A stretch of 39,266 nucleotides of DNA. Origin: Escherichia phage N30. The notes under the pieces were generated by a model, which was given only the letters and a program-made list of their open reading frames with translations, had not been told where the DNA came from and ran no database searches. The position numbers and the translations under genes were made by a program. The stretch lies in sequence record NC_048078.1; one strand, 5' to 3'. Within the stretch, counting starts at the first letter, position 1; each line of letters starts with the position of its first letter. This document shows positions 10,427 through 39,266 of the stretch, in pieces.

Positions 10427-10427
10427 T

Positions 10428-21426: not shown

Positions 21427-21439
21427 TAGACTCTGAAAT

Positions 21440-21480
21440 TAATACGACTCACTATAGGGAGACCACAGCGGTTTCCCTCT
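21440..21480 (+). promoter_or_regulatory. Phage class III promoter phi10 with leader hairpin
   Basis: TAATACGACTCACTATAGGGAGACCACAGCGGTTTCCCTCTAGAAAT, then strong SD AAGAAGGAGA before gene 10. Confidence 0.95.
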
Positions 21481-21524
21481 AGAAATCATTCTTTGTTTAA
21501 CTTTCTTAAGAAGGAGACATACAT

Positions 21525-22556
21525 ATGGCTAACATGACTGGTGGACAGCAACTGGGTACTAACCAAGGTAAAGGTCAAAGTGCTGGTGATAAACTGGCGT
21601 TGTTCTTGAAGGTATTTGGCGGTGAAGTTCTGACTGCATTCGCTCGTACCTCTGTGACCACTTCTCGCCACATGGTCCGTTCCATCTCCAGCGGTAAATC
21701 CGCTCAGTTCCCTGTTCTGGGTCGAACTCAGGCAGCGTATCTGGCTCCGGGTGAGAACCTCGATGATAAACGTAAAGACATCAAACACACCGAGAAGACC
21801 ATCACCATTGATGGCCTCCTGACGGCAGACGTTCTGATTTACGATATTGAGGATGCGATGAACCACTATGACGTTCGCTCTGAGTATACCTCTCAGTTGG
21901 GTGAGTCTCTGGCGATGGCTGCGGATGGTGCGGTTCTGGCTGAGATTGCTGGCCTGTGTAACTTGGCGAGCACCTATAACGAGAACATCGAGGGCTTAGG
22001 TACTGCTACCGTAATTGAGACCACTCAGTTAAAATCTGCACTTACCGACCAAGTTGCGCTGGGTAAGGAGATTATTGCAGCACTGACCAAGGCTCGTGCG
22101 GCTCTGACCAAGAACTACGTTCCGGCTGCTGACCGTGTGTTCTACTGCGACCCAGATAGCTACTCTGCGATTCTGGCAGCACTGATGCCGAACGCGGCAA
22201 ACTACGCTGCGCTGATTGACCCTGAGAAGGGTTCTATCCGTAACGTTATGGGCTTTGAGGTTGTAGAGGTTCCTCACCTCACTGCTGGTGGCGCTGGCAC
22301 CTCGCGCGAGGATACTTCCGGTCAGAAGCACGCCTTCCCTACCACTAAGAGCGGTAATGACAAGGTAGCTAAGGACAACGTTATCGGCCTGTTCATGCAC
22401 CGCTCTGCGGTAGGTACCGTTAAGCTGCGTGACTTGGCTCTGGAGCGCGCTCGCCGTGCTAACTTCCAAGCAGACCAGATTATCGCTAAGTACGCAATGG
22501 GCCACGGTGGTCTGCGCCCAGAAGCTGCTGGTGCAGTGGTTTTCAAGACGGAGTAA
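21525..22556 (+). CDS. 10A: Major capsid protein 10A
   Basis: 343 aa, MANMTGGQQLGTNQGKGQSAGDKLALFLKVFGGEVLTAFARTSVTTSRHMVRSISSGKSAQFPVLGRTQAAYL... Confidence 0.98.
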   Translation: MANMTGGQQLGTNQGKGQSAGDKLALFLKVFGGEVLTAFARTSVTTSRHMVRSISSGKSAQFPVLGRTQAAYLAPGENLDDKRKDIKHTEKTITIDGLLTADVLIYDIEDAMNHYDVRSEYTSQLGESLAMAADGAVLAEIAGLCNLASTYNENIEGLGTATVIETTQLKSALTDQVALGKEIIAALTKARAALTKNYVPAADRVFYCDPDSYSAILAALMPNAANYAALIDPEKGSIRNVMGFEVVEVPHLTAGGAGTSREDTSGQKHAFPTTKSGNDKVAKDNVIGLFMHRSAVGTVKLRDLALERARRANFQADQIIAKYAMGHGGLRPEAAGAVVFKTE

Positions 22557-22714
22557 TGCTGGGAGTGGCCTCAACGGTCGCTGCTAGTCCCGAAGAGGTG
22601 AGTGTTACTTCAACCGAAGAAACCTTAACGCCAGCACAGAAGGCTGCACGCACCCGCGCTGCTAACAAGGCCCGAAAGGAAGCTGAGTTGGCCGCTGCCA
22701 CCGCTGAGCAATAA
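21525..22714 (+). CDS. 10B: Minor capsid protein 10B (programmed -1 ribosomal frameshift near 22538-22544)
   Basis: Slippery G GTT TTC heptamer 12 nt before the 10A stop; the -1 frame stays open to TAA at 22712-22714, as for T7 10A/10B. Confidence 0.7.
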
Positions 22715-22763
22715 CTAGCATAACCCCTTGGGGCCTCTAAACGGGTCTTGAGGGGTTTTTTGC
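22715..22763 (+). terminator. Late transcription terminator Tphi
   Basis: ctagcataaccccttggggcctctaaacgggtcttgaggggttttttg: GC-rich hairpin plus U-tract. Confidence 0.95.
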
Positions 22764-22781
22764 TTTAATGGGAGGAACTAT

Positions 22782-23372
22782 ATGCGCTCATATGATATGA
22801 ACGTTGAGACTGCCGCTGAGTTATCCGCTGTGAACGACATTCTGGCATCTATCGGAGAACCTCCGGTATCAACGCTGGAAGGTGACTCTAACGCAGACGT
22901 AGCGAACGCTCGGCGTATTCTCAACAAGATTAACCGACAGATTCAATCTCGCGGATGGACGTTCAACATTGAGGAGGGCATAACGCTATTACCCGATGTT
23001 TACTCCAACCTGATTGTATACAGTGATGATTATCTGTCCCTAATGGCTACATCCGGTCAATCCATCTACGTTAACCGAGGTGGATATGTGTATGACCGAA
23101 CGAGTCAATCAGACCGCTTTGACTCTGGCATTACCGTGAACATTATTCGTCTCCGAGACTACGATGAGATGCCTGAGTGCTTCCGTTACTGGATTGTCAC
23201 CAAGGCTTCCCGTCAGTTCAACAACCGATTCTTTGGGGCACCAGAAGTAGAGGGTGTACTCCAAGAAGAGGAAGATGAGGCTAGACGTCTCTGTATGGAG
23301 TACGAAGTGGACTACGGTGGGTACAATATGCTGGACGGTGACGCGTTCACTTCTGGTCTACTGACTCGCTGA
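22782..23372 (+). CDS. 11: Tail tubular protein A (gp11)
   Basis: 196 aa, [62 protein letters not shown]... Confidence 0.97.
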
Positions 23373-23393
23373 TTAATCAATAAGGAGGCTCTA

Positions 23394-25784
23394 ATGGCAT
23401 TCATTAGCCAATCAATCAAGAACTTGAAGGGTGGTATCAGTCAACAGCCTGACATCCTTCGTTATCCCGACCAAGGGTCACGCCAAGTTAACGGTTGGTC
23501 TTCGGAGACCGAGGGCCTCCAAAAGCGTCCACCTATGGTTTTTCTCAAGACGCTGGGAGGAAGTGGTGACTTGGGACAAGCACCTTTAATTCACCTGATA
23601 AACCGTGATGAGTACGAGCGGTACTACGCAGTGTTTACCGGAAGTACCATCCGAGTTTTTGATTTAGCTGGTAACGAGAAACAAGTGCGTTTCCCTTCAG
23701 GGGCAGCGTATGTACAGACAGCTAACCCAAGGAATGACCTTAGGATGGTAACAGTTGCAGACTACACGTTTGTCGTTAACAGAAACGTCACAGTAACCGA
23801 GTCAACCGAAATTTCAACTGGTGGTAACTTTCGGGATAAAGGTGACGCTCTGATTAACGTGCGAGGTGGTCAATATGGAAGAACATTGAAGGTTCTGATT
23901 AATGGTACAGTATATGCATCATACACAATCCCCAACGGGTCCGCTCCAGAACACGTCAATAACACAGATGCTCAATGGCTTGCTAACGAGTTGGCTAAAA
24001 ATCTTAGGAACACCCTAGGACCCCACGGGTGGACATTCAACGTTGGTCAAGGGTTCATTCATGTGATAGCTCCTGCCAACGGCGAGATAGTCAACATATC
24101 AACCGAGGATGGATACGCAGACCAGCTAATTAACCCCGTCACGCACTACGCTCAGTCGTTCTCTAAGTTGCCACCAAACGCTCCAGACGGCTACATGGTT
24201 AAGATTGTTGGAGATTCCTCAAAGTCCGCTGACCAGTATTACGTTCAGTATGATGCCAGTCGTAAGGTATGGAAGGAAGTTGTTGGGTGGAACACCAAGC
24301 TGCACTACACTCATGCTACGATGCCTCACGCTCTCATTAGGGCCTCTGATGGTAACTTTGAATTCCAGACCATCTCGTGGAACCCTAGGGTGTGCGGTGA
24401 TGCTGATACTAACCCGTATCCTTCATTCGTAGGCTCTACGATTAATGATGTCTTCTTCTTCCGTAACCGTTTAGGATTCCTTAGCGGAGAGAATATCATA
24501 TTGAGTCGTACTGCAAAATACTTCAACTTCTTCCCAGCGTCGGTTGCTAACCTAAGTGATGATGACCCTATCGACGTAGCTGTGAGTACCAACCGAATCG
24601 CAATCCTTAAGTACGCCGTTCCGTTCTCAGAAGAGTTACTCATCTGGTCCGACGAAGCACAGTTCGTTCTTACAGCGTCAGGCACCCTTACATCAAAGTC
24701 AGTTGAGTTGAACCTAACGACTCAGTTTGACGTACAGGACCGAGCGAGACCTTTTGGGATTGGACGAAATGTCTACTTTGCTAGTCCGAGGTCCAGCTTC
24801 ACGTCCATCCACAGATACTATGCTGTGCAGGACGTAAGTTCCGTTAAGAACGCTGAGGACATTACAGCACACGTTCCTAACTACATTCCAAATGGTGTGT
24901 TTAGTATTTGTGGTAGTGGTACCGAAAACTTCTGTTCTGTACTATCTCACGGGGACCCTAGCAAAATCTTCATGTACAAATTCCTGTACCTTAACGAAGA
25001 GCTAAGGCAACAGTCGTGGTCTCACTGGGACTTTGGGGCAAACGTGCAGGTTTTGGCATGTCAGAGCATCAACTCAGATATGTTCATTATTCTACGTAAC
25101 GAGTTCAATACGTTCCTTGCGAGAGTTTCCTTTACGAAGAACGCCATTGACTTACAGGGAGAACCATATCGGGCCTTTATGGATATGAAGATTCGCTACA
25201 CGATTCCAAGCGGAACGTACAACGATGACACCTACGAAACTTCCATTCACATACCAACCATTTATGGTGCTAACTTCGGGAGGGGCAAAATCACTGTATT
25301 GGAGCCTGATGGTAAGATAACCGTATTTGAGCAACCAACTGCTGGGTGGAACAATGACCCATGGCTGAGGCTTAGTGGTAACTTAGAGGGACGAACGGTA
25401 TACATTGGGTTCAATATTAACTTCGTCTATGAGTTCTCTAAGTTTCTCATCAAGCAGACTGCCGACGATGGGTCAACCTCAACGGAAGACATTGGTCGCT
25501 TGCAGTTACGCCGAGCGTGGGTTAACTATGAGGAGTCTGGTACGTTTGACATTTATGTTGAGAACCAATCATCCAACTGGAAGTATACGATGGCTGGTGC
25601 TCGCTTAGGCTCTAACACTCTGAGGGCTGGGAGATTGAACTTAGGGACAGGACAATACCGATTCCCTGTGGTTGGTAACGCCAAGTTCAATACCGTGTCT
25701 ATCTTGTCTGACGAGACTACCCCGCTGAACATCATTGGGTGTGGCTGGGAAGGTAACTACTTACGGAGAAGTTCCGGTATTTAA
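23394..25784 (+). CDS. 12: Tail tubular protein B (gp12)
   Basis: 796 aa, MAFISQSIKNLKGGISQQPDILRYPDQGSRQVNGWSSETEGLQKRPP... Confidence 0.97.
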   Translation: MAFISQSIKNLKGGISQQPDILRYPDQGSRQVNGWSSETEGLQKRPPMVFLKTLGGSGDLGQAPLIHLINRDEYERYYAVFTGSTIRVFDLAGNEKQVRFPSGAAYVQTANPRNDLRMVTVADYTFVVNRNVTVTESTEISTGGNFRDKGDALINVRGGQYGRTLKVLINGTVYASYTIPNGSAPEHVNNTDAQWLANELAKNLRNTLGPHGWTFNVGQGFIHVIAPANGEIVNISTEDGYADQLINPVTHYAQSFSKLPPNAPDGYMVKIVGDSSKSADQYYVQYDASRKVWKEVVGWNTKLHYTHATMPHALIRASDGNFEFQTISWNPRVCGDADTNPYPSFVGSTINDVFFFRNRLGFLSGENIILSRTAKYFNFFPASVANLSDDDPIDVAVSTNRIAILKYAVPFSEELLIWSDEAQFVLTASGTLTSKSVELNLTTQFDVQDRARPFGIGRNVYFASPRSSFTSIHRYYAVQDVSSVKNAEDITAHVPNYIPNGVFSICGSGTENFCSVLSHGDPSKIFMYKFLYLNEELRQQSWSHWDFGANVQVLACQSINSDMFIILRNEFNTFLARVSFTKNAIDLQGEPYRAFMDMKIRYTIPSGTYNDDTYETSIHIPTIYGANFGRGKITVLEPDGKITVFEQPTAGWNNDPWLRLSGNLEGRTVYIGFNINFVYEFSKFLIKQTADDGSTSTEDIGRLQLRRAWVNYEESGTFDIYVENQSSNWKYTMAGARLGSNTLRAGRLNLGTGQYRFPVVGNAKFNTVSILSDETTPLNIIGCGWEGNYLRRSSGI

Positions 25785-25814
25785 TTAAGTGTTCTCCCTG
25801 TGGTGGTTCGAAAT

Positions 25815-25837
25815 TAATACGACTCACTATAGGGAGA
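25815..25837 (+). promoter_or_regulatory. Phage class III promoter phi13
   Basis: TAATACGACTCACTATAGGGAGA, +1 G at 25832. Confidence 0.9.
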
Positions 25838-25864
25838 ACAATACGACTACGGGAGGGTTTTCTT

Positions 25865-26281
25865 ATGATGACAATAAGACCTACTAAAAGTACAGACTTT
25901 GAGGTATTCACTCCGGCTCACCATGACATTCTTGAAGCTAAGGCTGCTGGTATTGAGCCGAGTTTCCCTGATGCTTCCGAGTGTGTCACGTTGAGCCTAT
26001 ATGGGTTCCCTCTAGCCATTGGTGGTAATTGTGGGGACCAGTGCTGGTTCGTTACGAGTGACCAAGTGTGGAGACTTAGTGGAAAGGCTAAGCGAGAGTT
26101 CCGTAAGTTAATCATGGAGTATCGCGATAAGATGCTTGAGAAGTATGATACTCTTTGGAATTACGTGTGGGTAGGCAATACGTCTCACATTCGTTTCCTC
26201 AAGACTATCGGTGCGGTATTTCATGAGGAGTACACACGCGATGGTCAATTTCAATTATTCACAATAACGAAAGGAGGGTGA
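25865..26281 (+). CDS. 13: Internal virion protein A (gp13)
   Basis: 138 aa, MMTIRPTKSTDFEVFTPAHHDILEAKAAGIEPSFPDASECVTLSLYGFPLAIGG... Confidence 0.95.
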   Translation: MMTIRPTKSTDFEVFTPAHHDILEAKAAGIEPSFPDASECVTLSLYGFPLAIGGNCGDQCWFVTSDQVWRLSGKAKREFRKLIMEYRDKMLEKYDTLWNYVWVGNTSHIRFLKTIGAVFHEEYTRDGQFQLFTITKGG

Positions 26282-26285
26282 TTAT

Positions 26286-26876
26286 ATGTGTTGGCCTGCT
26301 GCAATACCAATCGCACTAGCGGGTGCTCAGGCTATCGGTAGCCAGAACGCTCAAGCTAAAATGATAGCTTCGCAGACCGCCGCTGGTCGTCGTCAAGCAA
26401 TTGAACTTATGAAGCAGACGAACATCCAGAATGCTGACCTATCGTTGCAAGCTCGAAGTAAACTTGAGGAAGCGTCCGCTGAGTTGACCTCGCAGAACAT
26501 GCAGAAGGTCCAAGCTATGGGGTCTATCCGAGCGGCTATCGGAGAAAGTATGCTTGAAGGTTCCTCAATGGACCGAATTAAGCGAGTTACCGAGGGACAG
26601 TTCATTCGGGAAGCCAATATGGTAACTGAGAACTACCGCCGTGACTACCAAGCAATCTTCGCACAGCAACTTGGTGGCACTCAAAGTGCTGCAAGTCAGA
26701 TTGACGAAATCTACAAGGGCGAACAGAAACAGAAGAGTAAGCTACAGATGGTTCTTGACCCACTGGCTATCATGGGGTCATCTGCTGCTAGTGCTTATGC
26801 GTCTGGGGCGTTCGACTCTAAGCCAACCACTAAGGCACCTATTGTTGCCGCCAAAGGAACTAAGACGGGGAGGTAA
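26286..26876 (+). CDS. 14: Internal virion (core) protein B (gp14)
   Basis: 196 aa, MCWPAAIPIALAGAQAIGSQNAQAKMIASQTAAGRRQAIELMKQTNIQNADLSLQARSK... Confidence 0.95.
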   Translation: MCWPAAIPIALAGAQAIGSQNAQAKMIASQTAAGRRQAIELMKQTNIQNADLSLQARSKLEEASAELTSQNMQKVQAMGSIRAAIGESMLEGSSMDRIKRVTEGQFIREANMVTENYRRDYQAIFAQQLGGTQSAASQIDEIYKGEQKQKSKLQMVLDPLAIMGSSAASAYASGAFDSKPTTKAPIVAAKGTKTGR

Positions 26877-26882
26877 TATTAT

Positions 26883-29126
26883 ATGAGCAAGATTGAATCT
26901 GCCCTTCAAGCCGCACAGCCGGGACTCTCTCGGTTACGTAGTGGCGCTGGTGGTATGGGCTACAGGGCAGCCTCAACGCAAGCTGAGCAACCTAAGTCCA
27001 GCCTATTGGACACCATTGGTCGGTTCGCTAAGGCCGGAGCCGATATGTATACCGCTAAGGAACAACGTGCTCGTGACCTAGCAGATGAACGCTCTAACGA
27101 GATTATCCGTAAGTTGACTCCTGAGCAACGCCGAGAGGCATTGAATAATGGGACTCTTCTGTATCAGGACGACCCATACGCTATGGAAGCACTTCGAGTC
27201 AAGACTGGTCGTAACGCTGCGTACCTAGTTGATGATGACGTTATGCAGAAGGTAAAAGAGGGTGTCTTCCGTACTCGTGAAGAGATGGAACAGTATCGCC
27301 ACAGTCGTCTTCAAGAGGGCGCTAAGGCTTACGCTGAGCAGTTTGGGATTGACCCTGAGGACGTTGATTATCAGCGTGGTTTCAACGGGGACATCACTGA
27401 GCGTAACATCTCGCTGTATGGCGCACATGATAACTTCTTGAGTCAACAAGCTCAGAAGGGTGCCATCATGAATAGCCGAGTGGAACTCAACGGTGTCCTT
27501 CAAGACCCTGATATGCTTCGCCGCCCAGACTCTGCTGACTTCTTTGAGAAGTATATCGACAATGGTCTGGTTACTGGGGCAATCCCATCTGATGCTCAAG
27601 CCACACAGCTTATAAGCCAAGCGTTCAGTGACGCTTCTAGCCGTGCTGGTGGTGCTGACTTCCTGATGCGAGTCGGTGATAAGAAGGTAACACTTAACGG
27701 AGCCACGACTACTTACCGAGAGTTGATGGGTGAAGAACAATGGAATGCTCTTATGGTAACAGCACAACGTTCTCAATTTGAGAATGACGCTAAGCTGAAC
27801 GAGCAGTATCGCTTGAAGATTAACTCTGCGCTGAACCAAGAGGACCCTCGTACTGCGTGGGAGATGCTTCAAGGTATCAAGGCTGAACTCGATAAGGTTC
27901 AACCTGATGAGCAGATGACACCGCAACGCGAGTGGCTAATCTCGGCACAGGAACAAGTTCAGAATCAGATGAACGCATGGACGAAGGCTCAAGCCAAAGC
28001 TCTGGATGACTCAATGAAGTCTATGAACAAACTTGACGTAATCGACAAGCAGTTCCAGAAGCGAATCAACGGTGAGTGGGTATCAACGGACTTCAAGGAC
28101 ATGCCAACAAACGAGAACACTGGTGAGTTCAAACATAGCGATATGGTTAACTACGCCAATAAGAAGCTCGCGGAGATTGACCGCATGGACATCCCAGATA
28201 GCGCCAAGGACATGATGAAGTTGAAATACCTTCAAGCTGACTCTAAGGACGGTGCATTCCGTACAGCAATCGGGACTATGGTAACAGATGCTGGTCAAGA
28301 GTGGTCTGCCGCTGTGATTAACGGTAAGTTACCTGACAATACCCCAGCTTTGGATGCTCTACGTAGAATCCGTAATGCCGACCCTCAGTTGATTGCTGCG
28401 CTATACCCAGACCAAGCTGAGTTATTCCTGACGATGGACATGATGGACAAGCAAGGTCTCGACCCTCAGCTTCTTCTTGATGCCGACCGACTGACTGTTA
28501 AGCGGTCCAAAGAGCAACGCTTTGAGGACGATAAAGCATTTGAGTCTGCACTGAATGCGTCTAAGGCTCCTGAGATTGCCCGTATGCCAGCGTCACTGCG
28601 CGAATCTGCACGTAAGATTTATGACTCGGTTAAGTATCGCTCAGGGAACGAAAGCATGGCTATGGAGCAGATGACCAAGTTCCTTAAGGAATCTACCTAC
28701 ACGTTCACTGGTGACGATGTGGACGGTGATACCATTGGTGTAATTCCGAAGAACATGATGCAAGTCAACTCTGACCCGAAATCATGGGAGCAAGGTCGTG
28801 ATATTCTGGAGGAAGCACGTAAGGGAATCATTGCGAGCAACAATTGGATAGCCAACAAGCAACTGACCATGTATTCTCAAGGTGACTCCATTTACCTCAT
28901 GGACACCACTGGTCAAGTCCGCGTCCGTTATGATAAAGAGTTACTCTCGAAGGTCTGGAGTGAGAACCAGAAGAAACTCGAAGAGAAAGCTCGTGAGAAG
29001 GCTCTGGCTGATGTGAACAAGCGAGCACCTATAGTTGCCGCTACGAAGGCCCGTGAAGCTGCTGCTAAACGAGTCCGAGAGAAACGTAAACAGACTCCTA
29101 AGTTCATCTACGGACGTAAGGAGTAA
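26883..29126 (+). CDS. 15: Internal virion (core) protein C (gp15)
   Basis: 747 aa, collinear with T7 gp15. Confidence 0.95.
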   Translation: MSKIESALQAAQPGLSRLRSGAGGMGYRAASTQAEQPKSSLLDTIGRFAKAGADMYTAKEQRARDLADERSNEIIRKLTPEQRREALNNGTLLYQDDPYAMEALRVKTGRNAAYLVDDDVMQKVKEGVFRTREEMEQYRHSRLQEGAKAYAEQFGIDPEDVDYQRGFNGDITERNISLYGAHDNFLSQQAQKGAIMNSRVELNGVLQDPDMLRRPDSADFFEKYIDNGLVTGAIPSDAQATQLISQAFSDASSRAGGADFLMRVGDKKVTLNGATTTYRELMGEEQWNALMVTAQRSQFENDAKLNEQYRLKINSALNQEDPRTAWEMLQGIKAELDKVQPDEQMTPQREWLISAQEQVQNQMNAWTKAQAKALDDSMKSMNKLDVIDKQFQKRINGEWVSTDFKDMPTNENTGEFKHSDMVNYANKKLAEIDRMDIPDSAKDMMKLKYLQADSKDGAFRTAIGTMVTDAGQEWSAAVINGKLPDNTPALDALRRIRNADPQLIAALYPDQAELFLTMDMMDKQGLDPQLLLDADRLTVKRSKEQRFEDDKAFESALNASKAPEIARMPASLRESARKIYDSVKYRSGNESMAMEQMTKFLKESTYTFTGDDVDGDTIGVIPKNMMQVNSDPKSWEQGRDILEEARKGIIASNNWIANKQLTMYSQGDSIYLMDTTGQVRVRYDKELLSKVWSENQKKLEEKAREKALADVNKRAPIVAATKAREAAAKRVREKRKQTPKFIYGRKE

Positions 29127-29152
29127 CTAAAGGCTACATAAGGAGGCCCTAA

Positions 29153-32100
29153 ATGGATAAGTACGATAAGAACGTACCAAGTGATTATGATGGTCTGTTC
29201 CAAAAGGCGGCTGATGCCAACGGGGTCTCTTATGACCTTTTACGTAAAGTCGCTTGGACAGAATCACGATTTGTACCCACAGCAAAATCTAAGACTGGAC
29301 CATTAGGTATGATGCAGTTCACTAAGGCAACCGCTAAGGCCCTTGGTCTGCGAGTCACCGATGGTCCAGATGACGACCGACTGAACCCTGAGTTAGCTAT
29401 CAACGCTGCTGCTAAGCACCTTGCAGGTCTGGTTGGTAAATTCGATGGTGATGAACTCAAAGCTGCCCTTGCGTATAACCAAGGCGAGGGACGCTTGGGT
29501 AATCCTCAACTTGAGGCGTACTCAAAGGGAGACTTCGCGTCCATCTCTGAGGAGGGGCGTAATTACATGCGTAGCCTTCTGGATGTTGCTAAGTCACCTA
29601 TGGCTGGACAGTTGGAAACTTTTGGAGGTATCACCCCAAAGGGTAAAGGCATTCCGGCTGAGGTAGGATTGGCTGGAATTGGTCATAAGCAGAAGGTGAC
29701 ACAGGAACTACCTGAGTCCACAAGTTTTGACGTTAAGGGTATCGAACAGGAGGCTCCGGCGAAACCATTCGCCAAGGACTTTTGGGAGACCCACGGAGAA
29801 ACGCTTGACGAATACAACAATCGTTCAACCTTCTTCGGATTCAAAAATGCTGCCGAAGCTGAACTCTCCAACTCAGTCGCTGGGATGGCTTTCCGTGCTG
29901 GTCGTCTCGATAATGGTTTTGACGTGTTTAAAGACACCATTACGCCGACTCGCTGGAACTCTCACATCTGGACTCCAGAAGAGTTAGAGAAGATTAGAAC
30001 AGAGGTTAAGAACCCTGCGTACATCAACGTGGTAACTGGTGGTTCCCCTGAGAATCTTGATGACCTTATTAAGCTGGCTAACGAGAACTTTGAGAATGAC
30101 TCACTAGCTGCCGAAGCTGGTCTAGGTGCAAAACTGAGTGCTGGTATTATTGGCGCTGGTGTGGACCCTCTTAGCTATGTCCCTATGGTCGGTGTCACTG
30201 GTAAGGGCTTTAAGTTAATCAATAAGGCTCTTGTAGTTGGTGCAGAAAGTGCTGCTCTGAACGTTGCATCCGAAGGTCTCCGTACCTCCGTAGCTGGTGG
30301 TGACGCAGACTACGCTGGTGCGGCCTTAGGTGGCTTTGTGTTTGGCGCTGGTATGTCTGCAATCAGTGACGCTATAGCTGCTGGACTTAAACGCAGTAAA
30401 CCAGAAGCTGAGTTCGATAATGAGTTCATCGGCCCTATGATGCGGATGGAAGCCCGTGAGACAGCACGCAACGCCAACTCTGCTGACCTCTCTCGGATGA
30501 ACACTGAGAACATGAAGTTTGAAGGTGAACATAATGGTGTCCCTTATGAGGACTTATCAACCGAGAAAGGTGCCGTGGTGTTACATGATGGCTCCGTTAT
30601 AAGTGCAAGCAACCCAATCAACCCTAAGACCCTCAAAGAGTTCTCTGAGGTTGACCCTGAGAAGGCTGCGCGAGGAATCCAGCTTGCTGGGTTCACCGAG
30701 ATTGGATTGAAGACCTTGGGGTCTGATGATGCTGATATTCGTAGAGTGGCTATCGACCTTGTTCGCTCCCCGACTGGCATGCAGTCTGGTGCCTCAGGTA
30801 AGTTCGGTGCAACAGCTTCTGACATCCATGAGAGACTGCATGGTACTGACCAGCGTACCTATAATGACCTGTACAAAGCTATGTCTGACGCTATGAAAGA
30901 CCCTGAGTTCTCCACTGGCGGTGCTAAGATGTCCCGCGAAGAAACTCGCTACACTATCTATCGTAGAGCGGCACTAGCTATTGAGCGTCCAGAGTTGCAG
31001 AAGGTACTCACGCCATCTGAGAGAATCGTCATGGACATTATTAAGCGCCACTTTGACACCAAGCGTGAACTTATGGAGAATCCTGCAATCTTCGGCAATA
31101 CGAAGGCTGTTAGTATTTTCCCTGAGAGTCGCCACAAAGGGACTTACGTTCCTCACGTTTACGACCGTCATGCTAAAGCACTGATGATTCAACGCTACGG
31201 TGCCGAAGGTTTACAGGAAGGTATTGCTCGTTCGTGGATGAACAGCTACGTCTCCAGACCTGAGGTCAAGGTCAGAGTTGATGAGATGCTGAAGGAATTA
31301 CACGGGGTGAAGGAAGTAACGCCAGAGATGGTAGAGAAGTACGCTATGGATAAGGCTTATGGTATCTCCCATTCAGACCAGTTCACCAACAGTTCCATCA
31401 TTGAAGAGAACATTGAGGGCTTAGTAGGTATCGAGAACAACTCATTCCTTGAGGCACGTAACTTGTTTGATTCGGACCTATCTATCACTATGCCAGACGG
31501 ACAGCAATTCTCGGTGAACGACCTAAGGGACTTCGATATGTTCCGCATCATGCCAGCGTATGACCGCCGTATTAATGGTGACATCGCCATCATGGGGTCT
31601 ACTGGTAAAACCACTAAGGAACTTAAGGATGAGATTTTGGCTCTCAAAGCGAAAGCTGAGGGTGACGGTAAGAAGACTGGCGAGGTTCATGCTCTAATGG
31701 ATACCGTTAAGATTCTTACTGGTCGTGCTCGACGCAATCAGGACACTGTGTGGGAAACCTCACTGCGTTCCATCAATGACCTAGGGTTCTTCGCTAAGAA
31801 CGCCTACATGGGTGCTCAGAACCTTACGGAGATTGCTGGTATGATTGCCACGGGCAACGTTCGTGCTCTAGGCCACGGTATCCCAATTCTGCGTGATACA
31901 CTCTACAAGTCTAAACCAGTTTCCGCTAAGGAACTCAAGGAACTACATGCGTCTCTGTTCGGGAAGGAGGTGGACCAGTTGATTCGCCCTAAACGTGCTG
32001 ACATTGTGCAGCGCCTAAGGGAAGCAACTGATACTGGACCTGCTGTGGCGAACATCGTAGGGACCTTGAAGTATTCCACACAGGAACTGGCTGCTCGCTC

Positions 32101-33109
32101 TCCGTGGACTAAGATGCTGAACGGGACCACTAACTACCTTCTGGATGCGGCACGTCAAGGTATGCTAGGGGACGTTATTAGTGCCACCCTAACAGGTAAG
32201 ACTACCCGCTGGGAGAAAGAAGGATTCCTTCGTGGCGCCTCCGTAACTCCTGAGCAGATGGCTGGCATCAAGTCTCTCATCAAGGAACATATGGTCCGTG
32301 GCGAGGACGGGAAGTTTACCGTTAAGGACAAGCAAGCGTTCTCTATGGACCCCCGCGCTATGGACTTATGGCGACTTGCTGACAAGGTAGCTGATGAGGC
32401 AATGCTGCGTCCACATAAGGTGTCCTTACAGGATTCCCATGCATTCGGAGCATTAGGTAAGATGGTTATGCAGTTTAAGTCTTTCACTATCAAGTCCCTT
32501 AACTCTAAGTTCCTGCGAACCTTCTATGATGGATACAAGAACAACCGAGCGATTGACGCTGCGCTGACTGGTATCATCTCTATGGGTCTCGCTGGGGGTT
32601 ACTACGCTATGGCTGCACACGTCAAAGCGTATGGGATGCCTAAGGAGAAACGTAAGGAGTACTTGGAGAGAGCACTGGACCCAACCATGATTGCCCACGC
32701 TTCGTTGTCTCGTAGTTCTCAATTGGGTGCTCCTTTGGCTATGGCTGACCTAGTTGGTGGTGTCTTAGGGTTCGAGTCCTCCAAGATGGCTCGCTCTACG
32801 ATTCTACCTAAGGACACCATGAAGGAACGTGACCCAAACAAACCGTACACCTCTAGAGAGGTAATGGGAGCTATGGGTTCAAACCTTCTGGAACAGATGC
32901 CTTCTGCTGGCTTTGTGGCTAACGTAGGGGCTACCTTAATGAATGCTGCTGGCGTGGTAAACTCACCTAACAAAGCAACCGAGCAGGACTTCATGACTGG
33001 CTTGATGAACTCTACCAAGGAGTTAGTACCTAACGACCCTCTTACTCAACAGCTTGTGATTAAGATTTATGAGGCCAATGGTGTTAACTTGAGGGAGCGT
33101 AGGAAATAA
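29153..33109 (+). CDS. 16: Internal virion (core) protein D with N-terminal lytic transglycosylase domain (gp16)
   Basis: 1318 aa; N-terminal LT-like segment (...VAWTESRFVPTAKSKTGPLGMMQF...ALAYNQGEG...). Confidence 0.95.
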   Translation: MDKYDKNVPSDYDGLFQKAADANGVSYDLLRKVAWTESRFVPTAKSKTGPLGMMQFTKATAKALGLRVTDGPDDDRLNPELAINAAAKHLAGLVGKFDGDELKAALAYNQGEGRLGNPQLEAYSKGDFASISEEGRNYMRSLLDVAKSPMAGQLETFGGITPKGKGIPAEVGLAGIGHKQKVTQELPESTSFDVKGIEQEAPAKPFAKDFWETHGETLDEYNNRSTFFGFKNAAEAELSNSVAGMAFRAGRLDNGFDVFKDTITPTRWNSHIWTPEELEKIRTEVKNPAYINVVTGGSPENLDDLIKLANENFENDSLAAEAGLGAKLSAGIIGAGVDPLSYVPMVGVTGKGFKLINKALVVGAESAALNVASEGLRTSVAGGDADYAGAALGGFVFGAGMSAISDAIAAGLKRSKPEAEFDNEFIGPMMRMEARETARNANSADLSRMNTENMKFEGEHNGVPYEDLSTEKGAVVLHDGSVISASNPINPKTLKEFSEVDPEKAARGIQLAGFTEIGLKTLGSDDADIRRVAIDLVRSPTGMQSGASGKFGATASDIHERLHGTDQRTYNDLYKAMSDAMKDPEFSTGGAKMSREETRYTIYRRAALAIERPELQKVLTPSERIVMDIIKRHFDTKRELMENPAIFGNTKAVSIFPESRHKGTYVPHVYDRHAKALMIQRYGAEGLQEGIARSWMNSYVSRPEVKVRVDEMLKELHGVKEVTPEMVEKYAMDKAYGISHSDQFTNSSIIEENIEGLVGIENNSFLEARNLFDSDLSITMPDGQQFSVNDLRDFDMFRIMPAYDRRINGDIAIMGSTGKTTKELKDEILALKAKAEGDGKKTGEVHALMDTVKILTGRARRNQDTVWETSLRSINDLGFFAKNAYMGAQNLTEIAGMIATGNVRALGHGIPILRDTLYKSKPVSAKELKELHASLFGKEVDQLIRPKRADIVQRLREATDTGPAVANIVGTLKYSTQELAARSPWTKMLNGTTNYLLDAARQGMLGDVISATLTGKTTRWEKEGFLRGASVTPEQMAGIKSLIKEHMVRGEDGKFTVKDKQAFSMDPRAMDLWRLADKVADEAMLRPHKVSLQDSHAFGALGKMVMQFKSFTIKSLNSKFLRTFYDGYKNNRAIDAALTGIISMGLAGGYYAMAAHVKAYGMPKEKRKEYLERALDPTMIAHASLSRSSQLGAPLAMADLVGGVLGFESSKMARSTILPKDTMKERDPNKPYTSREVMGAMGSNLLEQMPSAGFVANVGATLMNAAGVVNSPNKATEQDFMTGLMNSTKELVPNDPLTQQLVIKIYEANGVNLRERRK

Positions 33110-33129
33110 TACGACTCACTATAGGGAGA
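33107..33129 (+). promoter_or_regulatory. Phage class III promoter phi17
   Basis: TAATACGACTCACTATAGGGAGA overlapping the gene 16 stop; followed by hairpin gggagaggcgaaataatcttctccc. Confidence 0.9.
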
Positions 33130-33181
33130 GGCGAAATAATCTTCTCCCTGTAGTCTCTTAGATTTACTTTAAGGAGGTCAA

Positions 33182-34843
33182 ATGGCTAACGTAATTAAGA
33201 CAGTTTTGACTTACCAGTTAGATGGCTCCAATCGCGATTTTAATATTCCGTTTGAGTATCTAGCCCGTAAGTTCGTAGTGGTAACTCTTATTGGTGTAGA
33301 CCGCAAGGTCCTTACGATTAATACAGACTACCGTTTTGCTACTCGCACCACTATCTCATTAACCAAGGCTTGGGGTCCAGCTGACGGGTATACTACCATC
33401 GAGTTGCGACGAGTAACCTCCACGACCGACCGCTTGGTTGACTTTACGGACGGCTCAATCCTCCGTGCGTATGACCTTAACGTAGCTCAGATTCAAACAA
33501 TGCATGTGGCAGAAGAGGCCCGTGACTTAACTGCTGATACTATTGGTGTCAACAACGATGGTCACTTGGATGCCCGTGGTCGTCGAATCGTTAACCTAGC
33601 AAACGCTGTGGATGACCGTGATGCTGTTCCACTTGGTCAACTTAAGGTCATGAACCAGAACTCTTGGCAAGCACGAAATGAAGCCTTACAGTTCCGTAAT
33701 GAGGCTGAGACTTTCCGAAACCAAGCGGAAGGCTTTAAGAACGAGTCTGGTACCAACGCTGCTAATACGAAGCAGTGGCGCGATGAGACTAATGGGTTCC
33801 GTAATGAGGCTGAACAGTTCAAGAATACTGCTGGTCAATATGCGACATCTGCTGGGAACTCTGCTACTGCTGCACACCAATCTGAGGTAAACGCTGGAAA
33901 CTCAGCTACGGCCTCAGCGGATTCTGCGGCTTCTTCAAAACAGCAAGCAGACCGAGCGAAGCAGGAAGCAGACAAGCTGGGAAACTGGAACGCCCTTGCT
34001 GGTACTGTAGATAGCGTTCAGGGTGATAGTGTATTCTGGAAAGGAGGAGGCTATTGGGTTGGAGGTCCCGTATACCAACTACAAACGAACCACGCGTTTA
34101 GGTTCCGTATGGGTCTTTGGGAAGAAGGCGACTTCCTTAAGTCTGACTTCGCTATGGACCGACCGGACGGTATAGGGTTCATAGAGTATGCAGCGGACAA
34201 GACTGGGCAACATCGTCACCAGATTCGACTTAATCAGTTAACAATAGCTGGCGGTGTATTAGAGTCAGATGCTGATGATCGCATAGCTCACGCTTTCGCT
34301 GACCAGTACAACACTAAAGCTCCTTTCTTCCAACAGATTCATGTACAGTCTACAAGCTCATATCACCCAATAATAAAGCAACGAACTTACCAATCTGGAC
34401 GGTGGGCAGGATGCTGGTCTATCGGTACATTACTGACTAGTACGTCTCCGTCATTCCACGTACATATGAAAGACGAAGGGGCAGGTGATAAACTTTGGAC
34501 GTTCAATACCAATGGAGACTTCCGCGTCCCTGGGGAGATTTGGGCCGATGGTGGACGTGTGGTTGTACGGAATGGCTCTTTTGACCCTGAGGGTAGAGTT
34601 TGGGGTAATGTGTATGATACCGGATACCTAGATGACTGGGTTCGAAGACATTTCATAGGGGATGTCTACCTAGGTCCTCAATCGTGGCAACAACAAACTG
34701 GAGGTTATCAGGACATTATAGCACCAGCTGGGCATGTGCAAACAGGTACAACCGCTAGTAATGGAGCCGTTGCGGGTATCTTTGTAAGACCGGTATGGCT
34801 TGGTTTCCATAACGGCACAAGAAGAATCATTGCGTCACAGTAA
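33182..34843 (+). CDS. 17: Tail fibre protein (gp17) with conserved N-terminal half and divergent C-terminal receptor-binding half
   Basis: 553 aa; N-terminus MANVIKTVLTYQLDGSNRDFNIPFEYLARKFVVVTLIGVDRKV... and coiled-coil rod are T7-like; C-terminal ~290 aa contain HxH motifs (QHRHQ, FHVHM). Confidence 0.95.
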   Translation: MANVIKTVLTYQLDGSNRDFNIPFEYLARKFVVVTLIGVDRKVLTINTDYRFATRTTISLTKAWGPADGYTTIELRRVTSTTDRLVDFTDGSILRAYDLNVAQIQTMHVAEEARDLTADTIGVNNDGHLDARGRRIVNLANAVDDRDAVPLGQLKVMNQNSWQARNEALQFRNEAETFRNQAEGFKNESGTNAANTKQWRDETNGFRNEAEQFKNTAGQYATSAGNSATAAHQSEVNAGNSATASADSAASSKQQADRAKQEADKLGNWNALAGTVDSVQGDSVFWKGGGYWVGGPVYQLQTNHAFRFRMGLWEEGDFLKSDFAMDRPDGIGFIEYAADKTGQHRHQIRLNQLTIAGGVLESDADDRIAHAFADQYNTKAPFFQQIHVQSTSSYHPIIKQRTYQSGRWAGCWSIGTLLTSTSPSFHVHMKDEGAGDKLWTFNTNGDFRVPGEIWADGGRVVVRNGSFDPEGRVWGNVYDTGYLDDWVRRHFIGDVYLGPQSWQQQTGGYQDIIAPAGHVQTGTTASNGAVAGIFVRPVWLGFHNGTRRIIASQ

Positions 34844-34852
34844 GGAGGGACC

Positions 34853-35230
34853 ATGAGAGTATTTTCTAACTGGAAGTGGACCGAAGGGTCTTACTTTGGA
34901 AAACCAATCTATGAGATTCGTGACCACAGTAACGTTGATTGGTACACCTTAATGGATGAACTAGATGAGCGCCAAGAAACATGGGTGGTAGGTATTGGAC
35001 CTAGCGGCGACGTTATGTGGTTCACTGATGGACCCGTGTCTGGACTGTACGTGCCTGTAGATGGGGGGACCGTTGTAGTAACTGATTCTTTCGAGTTCTC
35101 TGACAACTGGAGAGGGTGCACATGGGACGGTAAGAAATTCCATGCACCAGAAGAAGTCCAGAAGCGAACTAAGGAGGACATTGAGCAGGACTTACTGAAA
35201 CTCATGGCTGAGTTGAAGGGTCTGGAATAA
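34853..35230 (+). CDS. Hypothetical acidic protein; candidate tail-fibre assembly chaperone/accessory (no counterpart at this position in T7)
   Basis: 125-aa ORF with strong SD TAAGGAGGG overlapping the gene 17 stop and ATG 9 nt later (translational coupling); T7 has only a short intergenic gap here. Confidence 0.7.
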   Translation: MRVFSNWKWTEGSYFGKPIYEIRDHSNVDWYTLMDELDERQETWVVGIGPSGDVMWFTDGPVSGLYVPVDGGTVVVTDSFEFSDNWRGCTWDGKKFHAPEEVQKRTKEDIEQDLLKLMAELKGLE

Positions 35231-35283: not shown

Positions 35284-35487
35284 ATGCTGTCTTTAGATTT
35301 TAACAATGAGTTAGTCAAGGCTGCACCTATTGTTGGCACAGGTGTGGCTGATGGCGCTGCGAGGCTTTTCTTCGGGCTGAGTCTTAATGAGTGGTTCTAC
35401 GTTGCCGCTATTGCCTACACAGTGGTTCAGATTGGTGCCAAGGTAGTCGATAAGATGATTGACTGGAAGAAAGCCAATAAGGAGTGA
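35284..35487 (+). CDS. 17.5: Holin (class II, gp17.5)
   Basis: 67 aa, MLSLDFNNELVKAAPIVGTGVADGAARLFFGLSLNEWFYVAAIAYTVVQIGAKVVDKMIDWKKANKE; hydrophobic segments plus charged C-terminus. Confidence 0.95.
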   Translation: MLSLDFNNELVKAAPIVGTGVADGAARLFFGLSLNEWFYVAAIAYTVVQIGAKVVDKMIDWKKANKE

Positions 35488-35492
35488 TGTAT

Positions 35493-35762
35493 ATGGAAAA
35501 GGATAAGAGCCTTATTACGTTCTTAGAGATGTTGGACACTGCGATGGCTCAGCGTATGCTTGCTGATTTATCCAATGATGAGCGTCGGACTCCTCAACTC
35601 TATAATGCTATTAACAAACTGTTAGACCGCCACAAGTTCCAGATTGGCAAGTTGCAGCCGGATGTTCACATCTTGGGTGGCCTTGCTGGTGCTCTTGAAG
35701 AGTACAAAGAGAAAGTCGGTGATAACGGTCTTACGGATGACGATATTTACACATTACAGTGA
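35493..35762 (+). CDS. 18: Terminase small subunit (DNA maturase A, gp18)
   Basis: MEKDKSLITFLEMLDTAMAQRMLADLSNDERRTPQLYNAINKLLDRHKFQIGKLQPDVHILGGLAGALEEYKEKVGDNGLTDDDIYTLQ (89 aa); AAGGAG 8 nt upstream. Confidence 0.9.
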   Translation: MEKDKSLITFLEMLDTAMAQRMLADLSNDERRTPQLYNAINKLLDRHKFQIGKLQPDVHILGGLAGALEEYKEKVGDNGLTDDDIYTLQ

Positions 35763-35763
35763 T

Positions 35764-35805
35764 ATACTCAAGGCCACTACATATAGTGGTCTTTATGGAT
35801 GTCAT
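35764..35805 (+). promoter_or_regulatory. RNase III site R18.5 (approximate)
   Basis: actcaaggccactacatatagtggtctttatgga hairpin. Confidence 0.4.
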
Positions 35806-35856
35806 TGTCTACACGAGATGCTCCTACGTGAAATCTGAAAGTTAACGGGAGGCATT

Positions 35857-36300
35857 ATGCTGCAATTTTTACGTAAGCTAATCCCTTGGGTTCTCGCTGG
35901 GATGTTATTCGGATTAGGATGGCATCTAGGGTCGGACTCAACGGACGCTAAATGGAAACAGGAGGTACACAATGAGTACGTTAAGAGAGTTGAGGCTACG
36001 GCGAGCACTCAAAGAGCAATCAATGAAATATCGGCTAAGTATCAAGAAGACCTTGCCGCGCTGGAAGGGAGCACTGATAGGATTATTTCTGATTTGCGTA
36101 GCGACAATAAGCGGCTGCGTGTCAGAGTCAAAACTACCGGAGCCTCCGATGGTCAGTGTGGATTCGAGCCTGATGGTCGAGCCGAACTTGACGACCGAGA
36201 TGCTAAACGTATTATCGCAGTGACCCAGAAGGGTGACGCATGGATTCGTGCGTTACAGGATACTATTCGTGAACTGCAACGTAAGCAGGAAACCAAGTAA
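35857..36300 (+). CDS. 18.5: Rz-like i-spanin (gp18.5)
   Basis: 147 aa with N-terminal TM segment (LIPWVLAGMLFGLGWHLG) and coiled-coil periplasmic domain. Confidence 0.9.
   Translation: MLQFLRKLIPWVLAGMLFGLGWHLGSDSTDAKWKQEVHNEYVKRVEATASTQRAINEISAKYQEDLAALEGSTDRIISDLRSDNKRLRVRVKTTGASDGQCGFEPDGRAELDDRDAKRIIAVTQKGDAWIRALQDTIRELQRKQETK
35972..36223 (+). CDS. 18.7: Rz1-like o-spanin lipoprotein embedded in 18.5 (+1 frame)
   Basis: 83 aa; lipobox-like LICVATISGC followed by a Pro-rich segment; fully nested in gene 18.5 as in T7. Confidence 0.85.
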   Translation: MSTLRELRLRRALKEQSMKYRLSIKKTLPRWKGALIGLFLICVATISGCVSESKLPEPPMVSVDSSLMVEPNLTTEMLNVLSQ

Positions 36301-36309
36301 GGAGGTAAT

Positions 36310-38070
36310 GTGTCTACTCAATCCAATCGTAATGCGCTCGTAGTGGCGCAACTGAAAGGAGACTTTGTGGCGTTCCTGTTCGTCTTATGGAAGGCGTTAA
36401 ACCTTCCGGTGCCCACTAAGTGTCAGATTGACATGGCTAAGGTGCTGGCGAATGGGGAGAACAAGAAGTTCATCTTACAGGCTTTCCGTGGTATCGGTAA
36501 GTCGTTCATCACGTGTGCGTTCGTTGTGTGGTCCTTATGGAGAGACCCTCAGTTGAAGATACTTATCGTATCAGCCTCTAAGGAACGTGCAGACGCTAAC
36601 TCCATCTTCATCAAGAACATCATTGAACTGCTGCCGTTTCTCAGTGAGTTGAAGCCGAGACCCGGACAGCGTGATTCTGTAATCAGCTTTGATGTTGGTC
36701 CTGCTAATCCAGACCACTCGCCGAGCGTGAAGTCAGTAGGTATCACTGGTCAGTTAACAGGTAGCCGTGCTGATATTATCATTGCGGATGACGTTGAGGT
36801 TCCGTCTAACAGTGCGACTATGGGTGCCCGTGAGAAGCTATGGACTCTCGTTCAGGAGTTCGCTGCGTTACTTAAGCCACTGCCGTCTTCTCGCGTTATC
36901 TACCTTGGAACACCTCAGACTGAGATGACTCTCTATAAGGAACTTGAGGATAACCGTGGGTATACCACTATCATCTGGCCTGCCTTGTACCCAAGGACGC
37001 GTGAAGAGAACCTCTATTACTCTCAGCGTCTGGCACCAATGCTCCGTGCGGAGTACGAGGAGAATCCTGAGGCGCTGGCTGGAACTCCTACAGACCCTGT
37101 GCGCTTTGACCGTGATGACCTTCGTGAGCGTGAATTGGAATATGGTAAGGCTGGTTTCACACTACAGTTCATGCTTAACCCGAACCTGAGTGATGCCGAG
37201 AAGTACCCTCTGAGGCTCCGTGACGCTATCGTAGCGGCCTTAGACTTAGAGAAGGCACCAATGCATTACCAATGGCTTCCGAACCGTCAGAACATCATTG
37301 AGGACCTTCCTAACGTGGGCCTTAAGGGTGACGACCTGCATACATACCATGAGTGCTCGAATAACTCTGGTCAGTATCAACAGAAGATTCTGGTCATTGA
37401 CCCAAGTGGTCGTGGTAAGGATGAGACAGGTTACGCTGTACTGTACACCCTCAACGGTTATATCTACCTCATGGAAGCTGGAGGTTTCCGTGATGGTTAC
37501 TCCGATAAGACCCTTGAGTTGCTCGCTAAGAAAGCTAAGCAATGGGGAGTCCAGACGGTTGTCTACGAGAGTAACTTCGGTGACGGTATGTTTGGTAAGG
37601 TATTCAGTCCTATCCTTCTTAAACACCACAACTGTGCTATGGAAGAGATTCGCGCCCGTGGTATGAAGGAGATGCGTATTTGTGATACCCTTGAGCCAGT
37701 CATGCAGACTCACCGCCTTGTCATTCGTGATGAGGTCATTAGGGCAGACTATCAGTCCGCTCGTGACATAGACGGTAAGCATGACGTTAAGTATTCACTG
37801 TTCTACCAGATGACTCGCATCACTCGTGAGAAAGGCGCTCTGGCCCATGATGACCGATTGGATGCCCTTGCGTTAGGCATTGAGTATCTCCGTGAGTCCA
37901 TGCAACTGGATTCCGTTAAGGTCGAAGGTGAAGTGCTTGCTGACTTCCTTGAGGAACACATGATGCGTCCTACGGTTGCCGCTACGCACATCATTGAGAT
38001 GTCTGTAGGAGGAGTTGATGTGTACTCTGAGGACGATGAGGGTTACGGTACGTCTTTCATTGAGTGGTGA
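36310..38070 (+). CDS. 19: Terminase large subunit (DNA maturase B, gp19)
   Basis: 586 aa, GTG start after GGAGGTAAT; [66 protein letters not shown]... (Walker A-like GIGKS). Confidence 0.97.
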
Positions 38071-38107
38071 TTTATGAGGCCAAGGAAGGCCGCTTTAAGG
38101 AGGTAAT

Positions 38108-38551
38108 ATGATAAGCAAGAAGAAGTATGTTGTCGATAAGGAGACTGGTTGCTGGAACTTTAAGGGATGTAAGACGAAGACTGGTTATGGTCGTATTCGT
38201 GTGAATGGGGTACATTGGATGGCCCACAGGTATTCCCTGAGTTGTCACCTAGGTAGACCGATAGCTGACGGAATGGTTGTGATGCACCTGTGTGATAACC
38301 CTTCATGTGTTAACCCTGAGCACCTTAAGGAAGGGACTCAGAAGGAGAACATAGAGGACTGCATCCAGAAAGGTCGCGCAACAAAGGCCACAGGTAAACG
38401 CGATGTGTCTAAGAGAGACCCTAGCGAGGAACGTAAGGCTATCGTTATTCGCAGATACCATAAAGGCTGGACAGCAACGTCCATAGCCAGATACCATAAG
38501 CTCTCTGTGGCGTGGGTCAAGAGTGTAATTGAGGCTTACCTAAGTGATTGA
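38108..38551 (+). CDS. HNH (homing-type) endonuclease, paralog of the 12248 ORF
   Basis: 147 aa; HLCDNPSCVNPEHLKEGTQKEN HNH core; preceding GYGRIRVNGVHWMAHR aligns with AYGVFWMGGKNHKAHR of the other copy; SD AAGGAGGT upstream. Confidence 0.85.
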   Translation: MISKKKYVVDKETGCWNFKGCKTKTGYGRIRVNGVHWMAHRYSLSCHLGRPIADGMVVMHLCDNPSCVNPEHLKEGTQKENIEDCIQKGRATKATGKRDVSKRDPSEERKAIVIRRYHKGWTATSIARYHKLSVAWVKSVIEAYLSD

Positions 38552-38602
38552 TATTTGAAATTAGTGATACAGGTCTAAGTATATGATTCTAGACCGTTAT
38601 TC

Positions 38603-38625
38603 TAATTCGACTCACTATAGGGAGA
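38603..38625 (+). promoter_or_regulatory. Phage promoter phiOR
   Basis: TAATTCGACTCACTATAGGGAGA, +1 G at 38620. Confidence 0.85.
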
Positions 38626-38716
38626 AGCCTACCTAAAGATAACTATAAGACTTAAAGTGTCCTATAAGGTAGGTTGTTATTATTGTTAATACAACCAACA
38701 TAAAGGGAGGAGACTC

Positions 38717-38866
38717 ATGTTCCGCTTATTGTTGAACCTACTGCGGCATAGAGTCACCTACCGCTTTCTTATGGTACTTTGTGCTGCCATTGGTTATGCA
38801 GCTTTTAGTGGGGACCTCAGTTCGCTGGAGTCTACCGTTTGCTCTTTACTCACTTGTGTTGATTAG
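38717..38866 (+). CDS. 19.5: gp19.5, small hydrophobic protein
   Basis: Hand-translated MFRLLLNLLRHRVTYRFLMVLCAAIGYAAFSGDLSSLESTVCSLLTCVD (49 aa); SD AAAGGGAGGAG upstream. Confidence 0.8.
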   Translation: MFRLLLNLLRHRVTYRFLMVLCAAIGYAAFSGDLSSLESTVCSLLTCVD

Positions 38867-38869
38867 GGT

Positions 38870-39106
38870 CTTACTGACCGACTGATGGCTCACCGAGGGA
38901 TTCAGCGGTATGATTGCATCACACCACTTCATCCCTATAGAGTCAAGTCCTAAGGTATACCCATAAAGAGCCTCTAATGGTCTATCCGTAAGGTCTATAC
39001 CTAAAGATAGGCCATCATATTAGTGTCACCTAAAGAGGGTCTTAGAGAGGTCCTGAGGAGTCCCTAGAGGGTCCTTTAAAATATACCATAAAAATCTGAG
39101 TGACTA
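38870..39106. repeat. Right-end short-repeat region adjacent to DTR (concatemer junction/packaging region)
   Basis: Repeated cctaaag/ccataaag/ccgtaagg-type elements, mirroring the left-end array. Confidence 0.5.
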
Positions 39107-39266
39107 TCTCACAGTTTAAGAACCCAAAGTTCCCCCCATAGGGGTCCCTAAAGCCCAGCCAATCACCTAAAGCCAACCGAAGGTTGACCTTGAGGGGTTC
39201 CCTAAGGGTTGGGATGACCCTTTAGTTGTCTCTTTGGGTTTACCTTGAGTGTCTCTTCTTGTCCCT
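39107..39266. repeat. Right direct terminal repeat (DTR)
   Basis: Copy of bases 1-159 with one additional G in the G-run at 39194-39197. Confidence 0.9.

Follow-up and report, generated by a model that had tools for sequence, protein, structure and literature searches.

A probable free-standing HNH homing endonuclease gene in a replaceable cassette between genes 19 and 19.5 of Escherichia phage N30

The interval between the large-terminase gene and gene 19.5 of Escherichia phage N30 is best explained as a 617-nt mobile cassette that carries a free-standing HNH homing endonuclease gene (HEG), a reading that we consider likely. The open reading frame (ORF) within this cassette is real, and it very probably encodes a working, selfish homing nuclease. 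It encodes a small modular nuclease with a sequence-reading domain, lies between two conserved genes, is optional, has sharp junctions, and varies independently of its flanks, a combination that is the standard signature of free-standing homing endonuclease genes. The same gene is already known from the same slot: it is annotated as gene 19.4 in Escherichia phage 13a and is present in about 30 T7-like phages.

The window, i.e., the whole stretch of DNA that we analysed, is the N30 record (39,266 nt; NC_048078.1). It is the complete genome of a T7-like phage (Teseptimavirus), bounded by terminal repeats (the final 160 nt match the first ~160 nt) and with eleven T7-type promoters. The record nearest to it is that of Escherichia phage C5, also a Teseptimavirus. 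The identity between the two is 99.6% over 699-7615, 99.0% over 8442-18796, 89% over the structural genes (18793-34874), and 94.7% over 35284-38075. This mosaicism, with early and DNA-metabolism genes (699-18796) that are 99.0-99.6% identical except at 7613-8443 (87-96%) and structural genes that are only 89% identical, implies a large recent recombination. The point where the identity drops from 99% to 89% is also a further optional HNH slot: C5 has an HNH endonuclease gene 7.7 there (NC_048079 19134-19526, between genes 7.3 and 8), which is missing from N30 (18793-18796). Another difference from T7 is a 125-aa ORF at 34853-35230 (+), between the tail-fibre gene 17 and the holin gene 17.5, where the gap in T7 is of ~59 nt. 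A diverged homologue is present in C5 (35587-35970, annotated as 'hypothetical'); Pfam gives no match, and PHROG 136, 'tail fiber assembly protein', gives a weak one (E 8e-5).

We aligned the gene 19 to gene 19.5 locus of N30 with those of T7, C5, and 13a. Gene 19 (36310-38070, on the + strand like all N30 features described below) encodes the large terminase of 586 aa, which matches PF22530 (T7 terminase RNaseH-like; E 5.5e-40) and Terminase_6N. It ends with a TGA codon at 38068-38070 and forms the left homology arm of the cassette. The right arm is gene 19.5 (38717-38866), an ORF of 49 aa that Pfam assigns to DUF5465. Homology with T7 and C5 ends 6 nt past the gene 19 stop, at TGATTTATG, and restarts at ACCAACATAAAGGGAGGAG / ACCAACATAAAGGGAGGAGACTCATG, 23 nt upstream of the gene 19.5 ATG. 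The 617 nt in between (38077-38693) have the same order in N30 and 13a: ribosome-binding site, HNH gene, 51-nt spacer, phiOR variant, and 68-nt leader. The slot of T7 and C5 holds instead an unrelated 229 nt (T7 39137-39365) with a canonical phiOR and no ORF. An earlier reading, made from the sequence alone, had described a 147-aa HNH ORF between gene 19 and the phiOR promoter and gene 19.5, in a slot where T7 has a short gap. The ORF is confirmed at 38108-38551, the 38071-38602 interval given for it being the whole space from the gene 19 stop to phiOR. The second part of the description holds insofar as T7 and C5 have no ORF in the slot, but simple insertion into the T7 gap is ruled out: the entire spacer, including phiOR and leader, is non-homologous between the two types of allele. 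As judged from the alignments, the difference is thus a replacement, by a cassette equipped with a phiOR variant and a leader of its own.

The promoter within the cassette (38603-38625) is a phiOR-type T7 RNA polymerase promoter whose variant sequence, TAATTCGACTCACTATAGGGAGA, has one mismatch to the T7 consensus. The promoter scan gave no match in 100 shuffles, and phiOR is annotated at the same place in 13a. The 68-nt leader that separates it from the gene 19.5 ribosome-binding site (38626-38693) is cassette-specific and non-homologous to the T7 leader. We found the phiOR variant and leader (38549-38700) at full length in 30 phage records, all of which also carry the HNH gene, and no HEG-less version of them among 50,697 phage records. 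Because they are confined to HNH-carrying records, the cassette behaves as a single unit. The identity of this segment is mostly 94-99% among N30-type HEG+ records and 78-86% in the 13a, Vi06, and Rambo types.

The HNH gene itself (38108-38551, 147 aa) starts with ATG, contains HLCDNPSCVNPEHLKEGTQKEN, and is preceded by a Shine-Dalgarno sequence, AAGGAGGT (38097-38104), which is visible in the sequence and makes a strong ribosome-binding site. We detected no significant RNA fold that would occlude this site (z 0.17), nothing above chance that resembled a sigma-70 promoter or a terminator specific to the gene, and no promoter between phi17 (33107) and the gene. Lacking its own promoter, the gene would be read late, on transcripts from phi17 and the promoters upstream of it that pass through gene 19, and translated from its own ribosome-binding site.

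The protein belongs to the HNH / His-Me finger nuclease superfamily, on the joint evidence of domain score, conserved residues, and fold similarity. It matches HNH_3 (PF13392) above the curated threshold (E 9.4e-9, 35.2 bits for a Pfam cutoff of 24.8), and Pfam also detects a zf-His_Me_endon loop and no other HNH-type family at E <= 0.1. PHROG 6254, 'HNH endonuclease', covers the protein end to end (E 3.6e-59), and the NCBIfam search gave no meaningful match. In an alignment of 49 homologues, the invariant residues are C15, G28, H40, H60, C62, C67, N69, P70, H72, L73, and N81, and they include the HNH His and Asn residues and a Cys/His cluster. Eight of them (H40, H60, C62, C67, N69, P70, H72, and N81) lie in the HNH_3 / His-Me finger catalytic core, which Pfam and the invariant columns place at residues 39-81 (38222-38350); H60, N69, H72, and N81 provide the general-base His and the metal-binding Asn/His of a beta-beta-alpha-metal motif. 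The helix-turn-helix-like C-terminus described from the sequence alone is borne out by a match to HTH_23 at residues 104-145 that falls just under the Pfam cutoff (E 2.4e-5, 24.5 bits for a cutoff of 24.6) and by three helices in the structural model; a three-helix HTH DNA-binding domain is therefore predicted there (38417-38542).

This model, built with AlphaFold2 on the alignment, has a mean pLDDT of 86.9. From the N-terminus onwards, it consists of a beta-rich part, a beta-beta-alpha unit at residues 56-87 (strands 56-60 and 73-77, then helix 78-87), a disordered linker (97-103), and three C-terminal helices (105-118, 123-129, and 134-146). A Foldseek comparison with the PDB returned the homing endonuclease I-HmuI as the top match (probability 1.00, with a modest E of 6e-3 and a TM of 0.46), followed by I-PpoI (probability 0.98) and then by Smad MH1 domains. 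A profile search reached the solved structures of I-PpoI and I-HmuI weakly, and a search of solved structures with the single sequence found no relative.

The gene is intact and retains all the HNH/His-Me catalytic and zinc-ligand residues, and the purifying selection on it is strong. Its dN/dS against six N30-type homologues is 0.088-0.104 (~0.09) at a dS of 0.25-0.40, from which we conclude that the frame is translated and constrained, as the earlier reading required. These values bear on whether the ORF could be in decay or have lost its activity, and be retained through its linkage to the phiOR and leader, of which each phage needs one version or another. Once fixed, HEGs are expected to degenerate, and among N30-type records the phiOR and leader (mostly 94-99%) are better conserved than the ORF (90-95%), which would fit such a remnant. 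Yet the ORF is intact in all 9 copies examined, its catalytic residues are invariant, and its dN/dS is low, which makes a remnant highly improbable.

The comparison of the gene 19 to 19.5 interval across T7-like phages, which had been named beforehand as a check, showed the cassette to be optional. Among the 206 phage records matching 37500-39266, 28 (those covering at least 80% of the query) carry the cassette, and the HEG- records among the matches listed (e.g., T7 and NC-A) cover ~65% of the query, i.e., only the flanks. About 85% of the matching phage records are thus without the HNH gene, and both C5, the nearest relative of N30, and T7 are without the cassette. This is a presence/absence polymorphism at a single locus in close relatives, with sharp junctions, as expected of a homing gene. 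The flanks do not follow it. HEG+ and HEG- phages are intermingled in a neighbour-joining tree built from the final 1000 nt of gene 19 (star-like, without support values): the nearest neighbour of N30 is C5 (HEG-), and that of HZ2R8 is also a HEG- genome. Across phages of the T7 group with and without the HNH gene, the C-termini of gp19 are 96-99% identical.

We searched the flanks for traces of past homing by comparing 9 HEG+ with 9 HEG- phages. Over the final ~1950 nt of gene 19, no column fully separates the two sets, and on the right flank only two columns do so, both at the junction. Hence, a HEG-linked co-conversion tract and protective substitutions in genes 19 and 19.5 were both rejected, and the only consistent difference between the 9 and 9 phages is the replaced spacer. 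The divergence of the HEG is similar to that of its flanks (~94% nucleotide identity), such that recent horizontal spread is not directly visible. C5 is 94.7% identical to N30 to the left of the cassette and 93.4% to the right, with no change in the mosaic pattern at that point. An equally patchy distribution would result from ordinary homologous recombination within the conserved flanks.

The slot is also occupied further afield. The Yersinia phages Berlin and Yep-phi (Berlinvirus) and one IMG/VR genome have homologues that are 49-51% identical to the N30 protein directly after gene 19; the gp19 of the IMG/VR genome is ~80% identical to that of N30. Berlin has a phiOR-like promoter 3' of its gene 19.4-like HNH gene. 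Downstream of this promoter, at ~3198-3301 of the examined locus, it also has eight tandem copies of CTTAGTGACTACT, in what the record annotates as a repeat region. Remoter homologues of the N30 protein occur in unrelated genomic contexts.

We propose that the cassette spreads by homing, as follows. In a mixed infection, the HNH protein would bind through its HTH and N-terminal region and nick or cut the HEG-less (T7/C5-type) allele. Related monomeric HNH homing enzymes are nickases, e.g., I-PfoP3I of a T7-like cyanophage (PMC3428280). Since genes 19 and 19.5 have no HEG-linked protective substitutions, the target is predicted within the 229-nt T7-type spacer or across its edges, so that the cut would fall inside the spacer or across the spacer junctions (predicted region, T7 39131-39370). 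Repair from the HEG+ genome, anchored in genes 19 and 19.5, would then copy the whole cassette, including phiOR, and the carrier genome would be immune because the target sequence is missing from it.

Two alleles of the gene can be distinguished. N30-type copies encode proteins that are 92-97% identical to that of N30, and counterparts in the same slot, with the same cassette junctions and phiOR variant, include those of IME390, CICC 80001, HZ2R8, 3A_8767, JeanTinguely, Yanou, vB_YpYeO9, and others. The second allele, found in 13a (37645-38106) and Vi06, is 89-92% identical to that of N30 in the nuclease part and 37% in the C-terminal DNA-binding part (N30 38378-38551). From this comparison, the two-allele pattern has the look of a domain swap, which could alter the choice of target. 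The Salmonella phage Vi06 has another peculiarity: its gene 19 matches the N30 gp19 in two blocks ~800 nt apart (846-1651 of the examined locus), a pattern suggesting that an intron, an intein, or a HEG interrupts the terminase gene.

The divergent DNA-binding parts also fit another use of the nuclease, as a weapon of exclusion or otherwise co-opted function that mainly harms co-infecting HEG-less relatives, or host or foreign DNA, and that is kept because it benefits the phage; its HTH could also regulate. With 37% identity in the DNA-binding part for 89-92% in the nuclease part, the alleles suggest a diversifying choice of targets, and the strong purifying selection (dN/dS 0.09) and the occupation of the slot across genera point the same way. 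Nuclease genes situated at the boundaries of exchange, as well as competition through HEGs, have been described in other phages (PMC10055350). However, such a mechanism overlaps that of homing and the sequence cannot separate the two, any benefit must be conditional since ~85% of the matching records are without the gene, and the mosaic pattern relative to C5 (94.7% on the left, 93.4% on the right) does not change at the cassette. We regard this alternative as unlikely.

A bolder version of the homing model considers the function of the replaced sequence. The phiOR/right-end region of T7 is a secondary origin, and we take it to be part of the right-end packaging signal as well. The cassette might then be a self-sufficient unit of nuclease and replacement phiOR and leader that targets the T7-type phiOR/right-end region of co-infecting relatives. 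Homing would in this case also cripple a replication and packaging signal of the rival while swapping in the promoter variant of the cassette, and the two alleles would correspond to different targeting specificities. This is rather improbable in our opinion.

The sequence-only reading had speculated on a role of the HNH gene in DNA packaging, given its position. In such a scenario, the protein would be an accessory factor, assisting the terminase during DNA maturation as gp74 of HK97 does in cos phages. The gene directly follows the large-terminase gene, with which it would be co-transcribed, and, as that reading had noted, HNH genes beside terminase genes are a described arrangement in other phages (Kala et al. 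2014, summarized in PMC8861465; PMC3592412). These sources also describe terminase-assisting HNH proteins for HK97-like phages, and the summary of Kala et al. 2014 in PMC8861465 ties the dependence on an HNH partner to large terminases of the Terminase_1 family. In N30, gp19 matches only PF22530 and Terminase_6N, not Terminase_1, and the nuclease domain is HNH_3 (PF13392), with no other HNH-type Pfam family at E <= 0.1. T7, C5, NC-A, and other phages have gp19 C-termini that are 98-99% identical and no HNH gene, unlike what is expected if the protein were a required partner. Finally, the layout of a nuclease with a sequence-reading HTH fits intron-encoded and free-standing homing enzymes. The speculation found no support, phages whose terminase C-termini are 96-99% identical being without the gene, and we rejected the packaging role, which is extremely unlikely given that near-identical terminases occur without the HNH gene, that the terminase is of the T7 type, and that the domain is HNH_3.

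A second HNH gene of N30 lies just after gene 4 (12248-12667), and BLASTP, phmmer, Pfam, and PHROG identify it as a distant paralogue with HNH_3 and HTH. It had been taken for a clear paralogue of the gene after gene 19, and as evidence that one family of endonucleases populated two sites of the genome. The two proteins, whose alignment had been put forward as a check, are significantly similar (by BLASTP, 44% identity over 84 aa with E 3e-20; by phmmer, E 2e-19), and their homology is real. Nevertheless, it is old and confined to the catalytic core, their best PHROGs differ (1872 for the 12248 protein and 6254 for the 38108 protein), and gp7.7 of 13a and C5 matches the 38108 protein equally well (44-46% identity, E ~1e-20). 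Because the 12248 protein is no closer than gp7.7, the two N30 ORFs are old members of a family and not products of a recent duplication. The family does occupy more than one site: on these similarities, a broad gp7.7-like HNH_3 family of the T7 group appears in several slots, and a recent intragenomic spread is not the case. Searches with both proteins by phmmer, together with a motif scan, revealed no third ORF of the HNH type in N30. The 12248 gene is also polymorphic for presence and absence, since C5 encodes an identical protein (100%) and 13a none, phi4.3 and gene 4.3 lying directly 3' of gene 4 in the latter. In T7, the HNH-type genes 3.8, 5.3, and 7.7 are dispensable, and 7.7 can be deleted (PMC12153263).

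Prior annotation of the gene after gene 19 agrees with a homing function: the RefSeq/GenBank records of about 30 phages label it 'HNH endonuclease', 'homing endonuclease', or 'putative homing endonuclease'. A literature search found no paper on gp19.4 itself, and PMC8861465 reports an optional HEG adjoining gene 19 in a Kayfunavirus. The significance of our results is mainly one of annotation. They confirm that optional HNH homing-endonuclease cassettes occupy several intergenic slots of the T7 group, and that the one after gene 19 travels with its own phiOR. The variant phiOR in the cassette and the two alleles that differ in the DNA-binding domain are details of modest interest. For phylogenies of T7-like phages and for engineered phages, the 19/19.5 interval is useful as a natural, dispensable, and replaceable cassette site.

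Among known systems, the packaging HNH proteins of the HK97 gp74 type resemble the N30 protein in being HNH proteins encoded beside a terminase gene. They differ from it in the HNH Pfam family and in the family of the associated terminase, and the N30 protein, dispensable in near-identical phages, does not appear to act in the way that they do. The best structural match, I-HmuI (PDB 1u3e), is an intron-encoded HNH nicking homing endonuclease of the Bacillus phage SPO1. It has in common with the N30 protein an N-terminal beta region, the HNH motif, and a C-terminal helix-turn-helix. The two are 24% identical, and the N30 gene is free-standing whereas I-HmuI is intron-encoded. Furthermore, the N30 family has a Cys/His zinc site (C15, C62, C67, and H72) that resembles the I-PpoI / zf-His_Me_endon loop. 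The gp7.7-like proteins of the T7 group (gp7.7 of 13a and C5, and the HNH protein encoded after gene 4 in N30 and C5) have the same architecture, with an HNH_3 core and a C-terminal HTH in 130-150 aa, and their genes are likewise free-standing between essential genes and optional; they differ in that the identity of 44-46% extends only over the catalytic core, and in their PHROG families and slots. Gene 19.4 of Escherichia phage 13a (YP_002003987.1) is the counterpart in this very slot. Its protein is 70% identical overall to that of N30, and its locus has the same order of elements (gene 19, HNH gene, phiOR, gene 19.5), the same cassette junctions, and the same phiOR variant.
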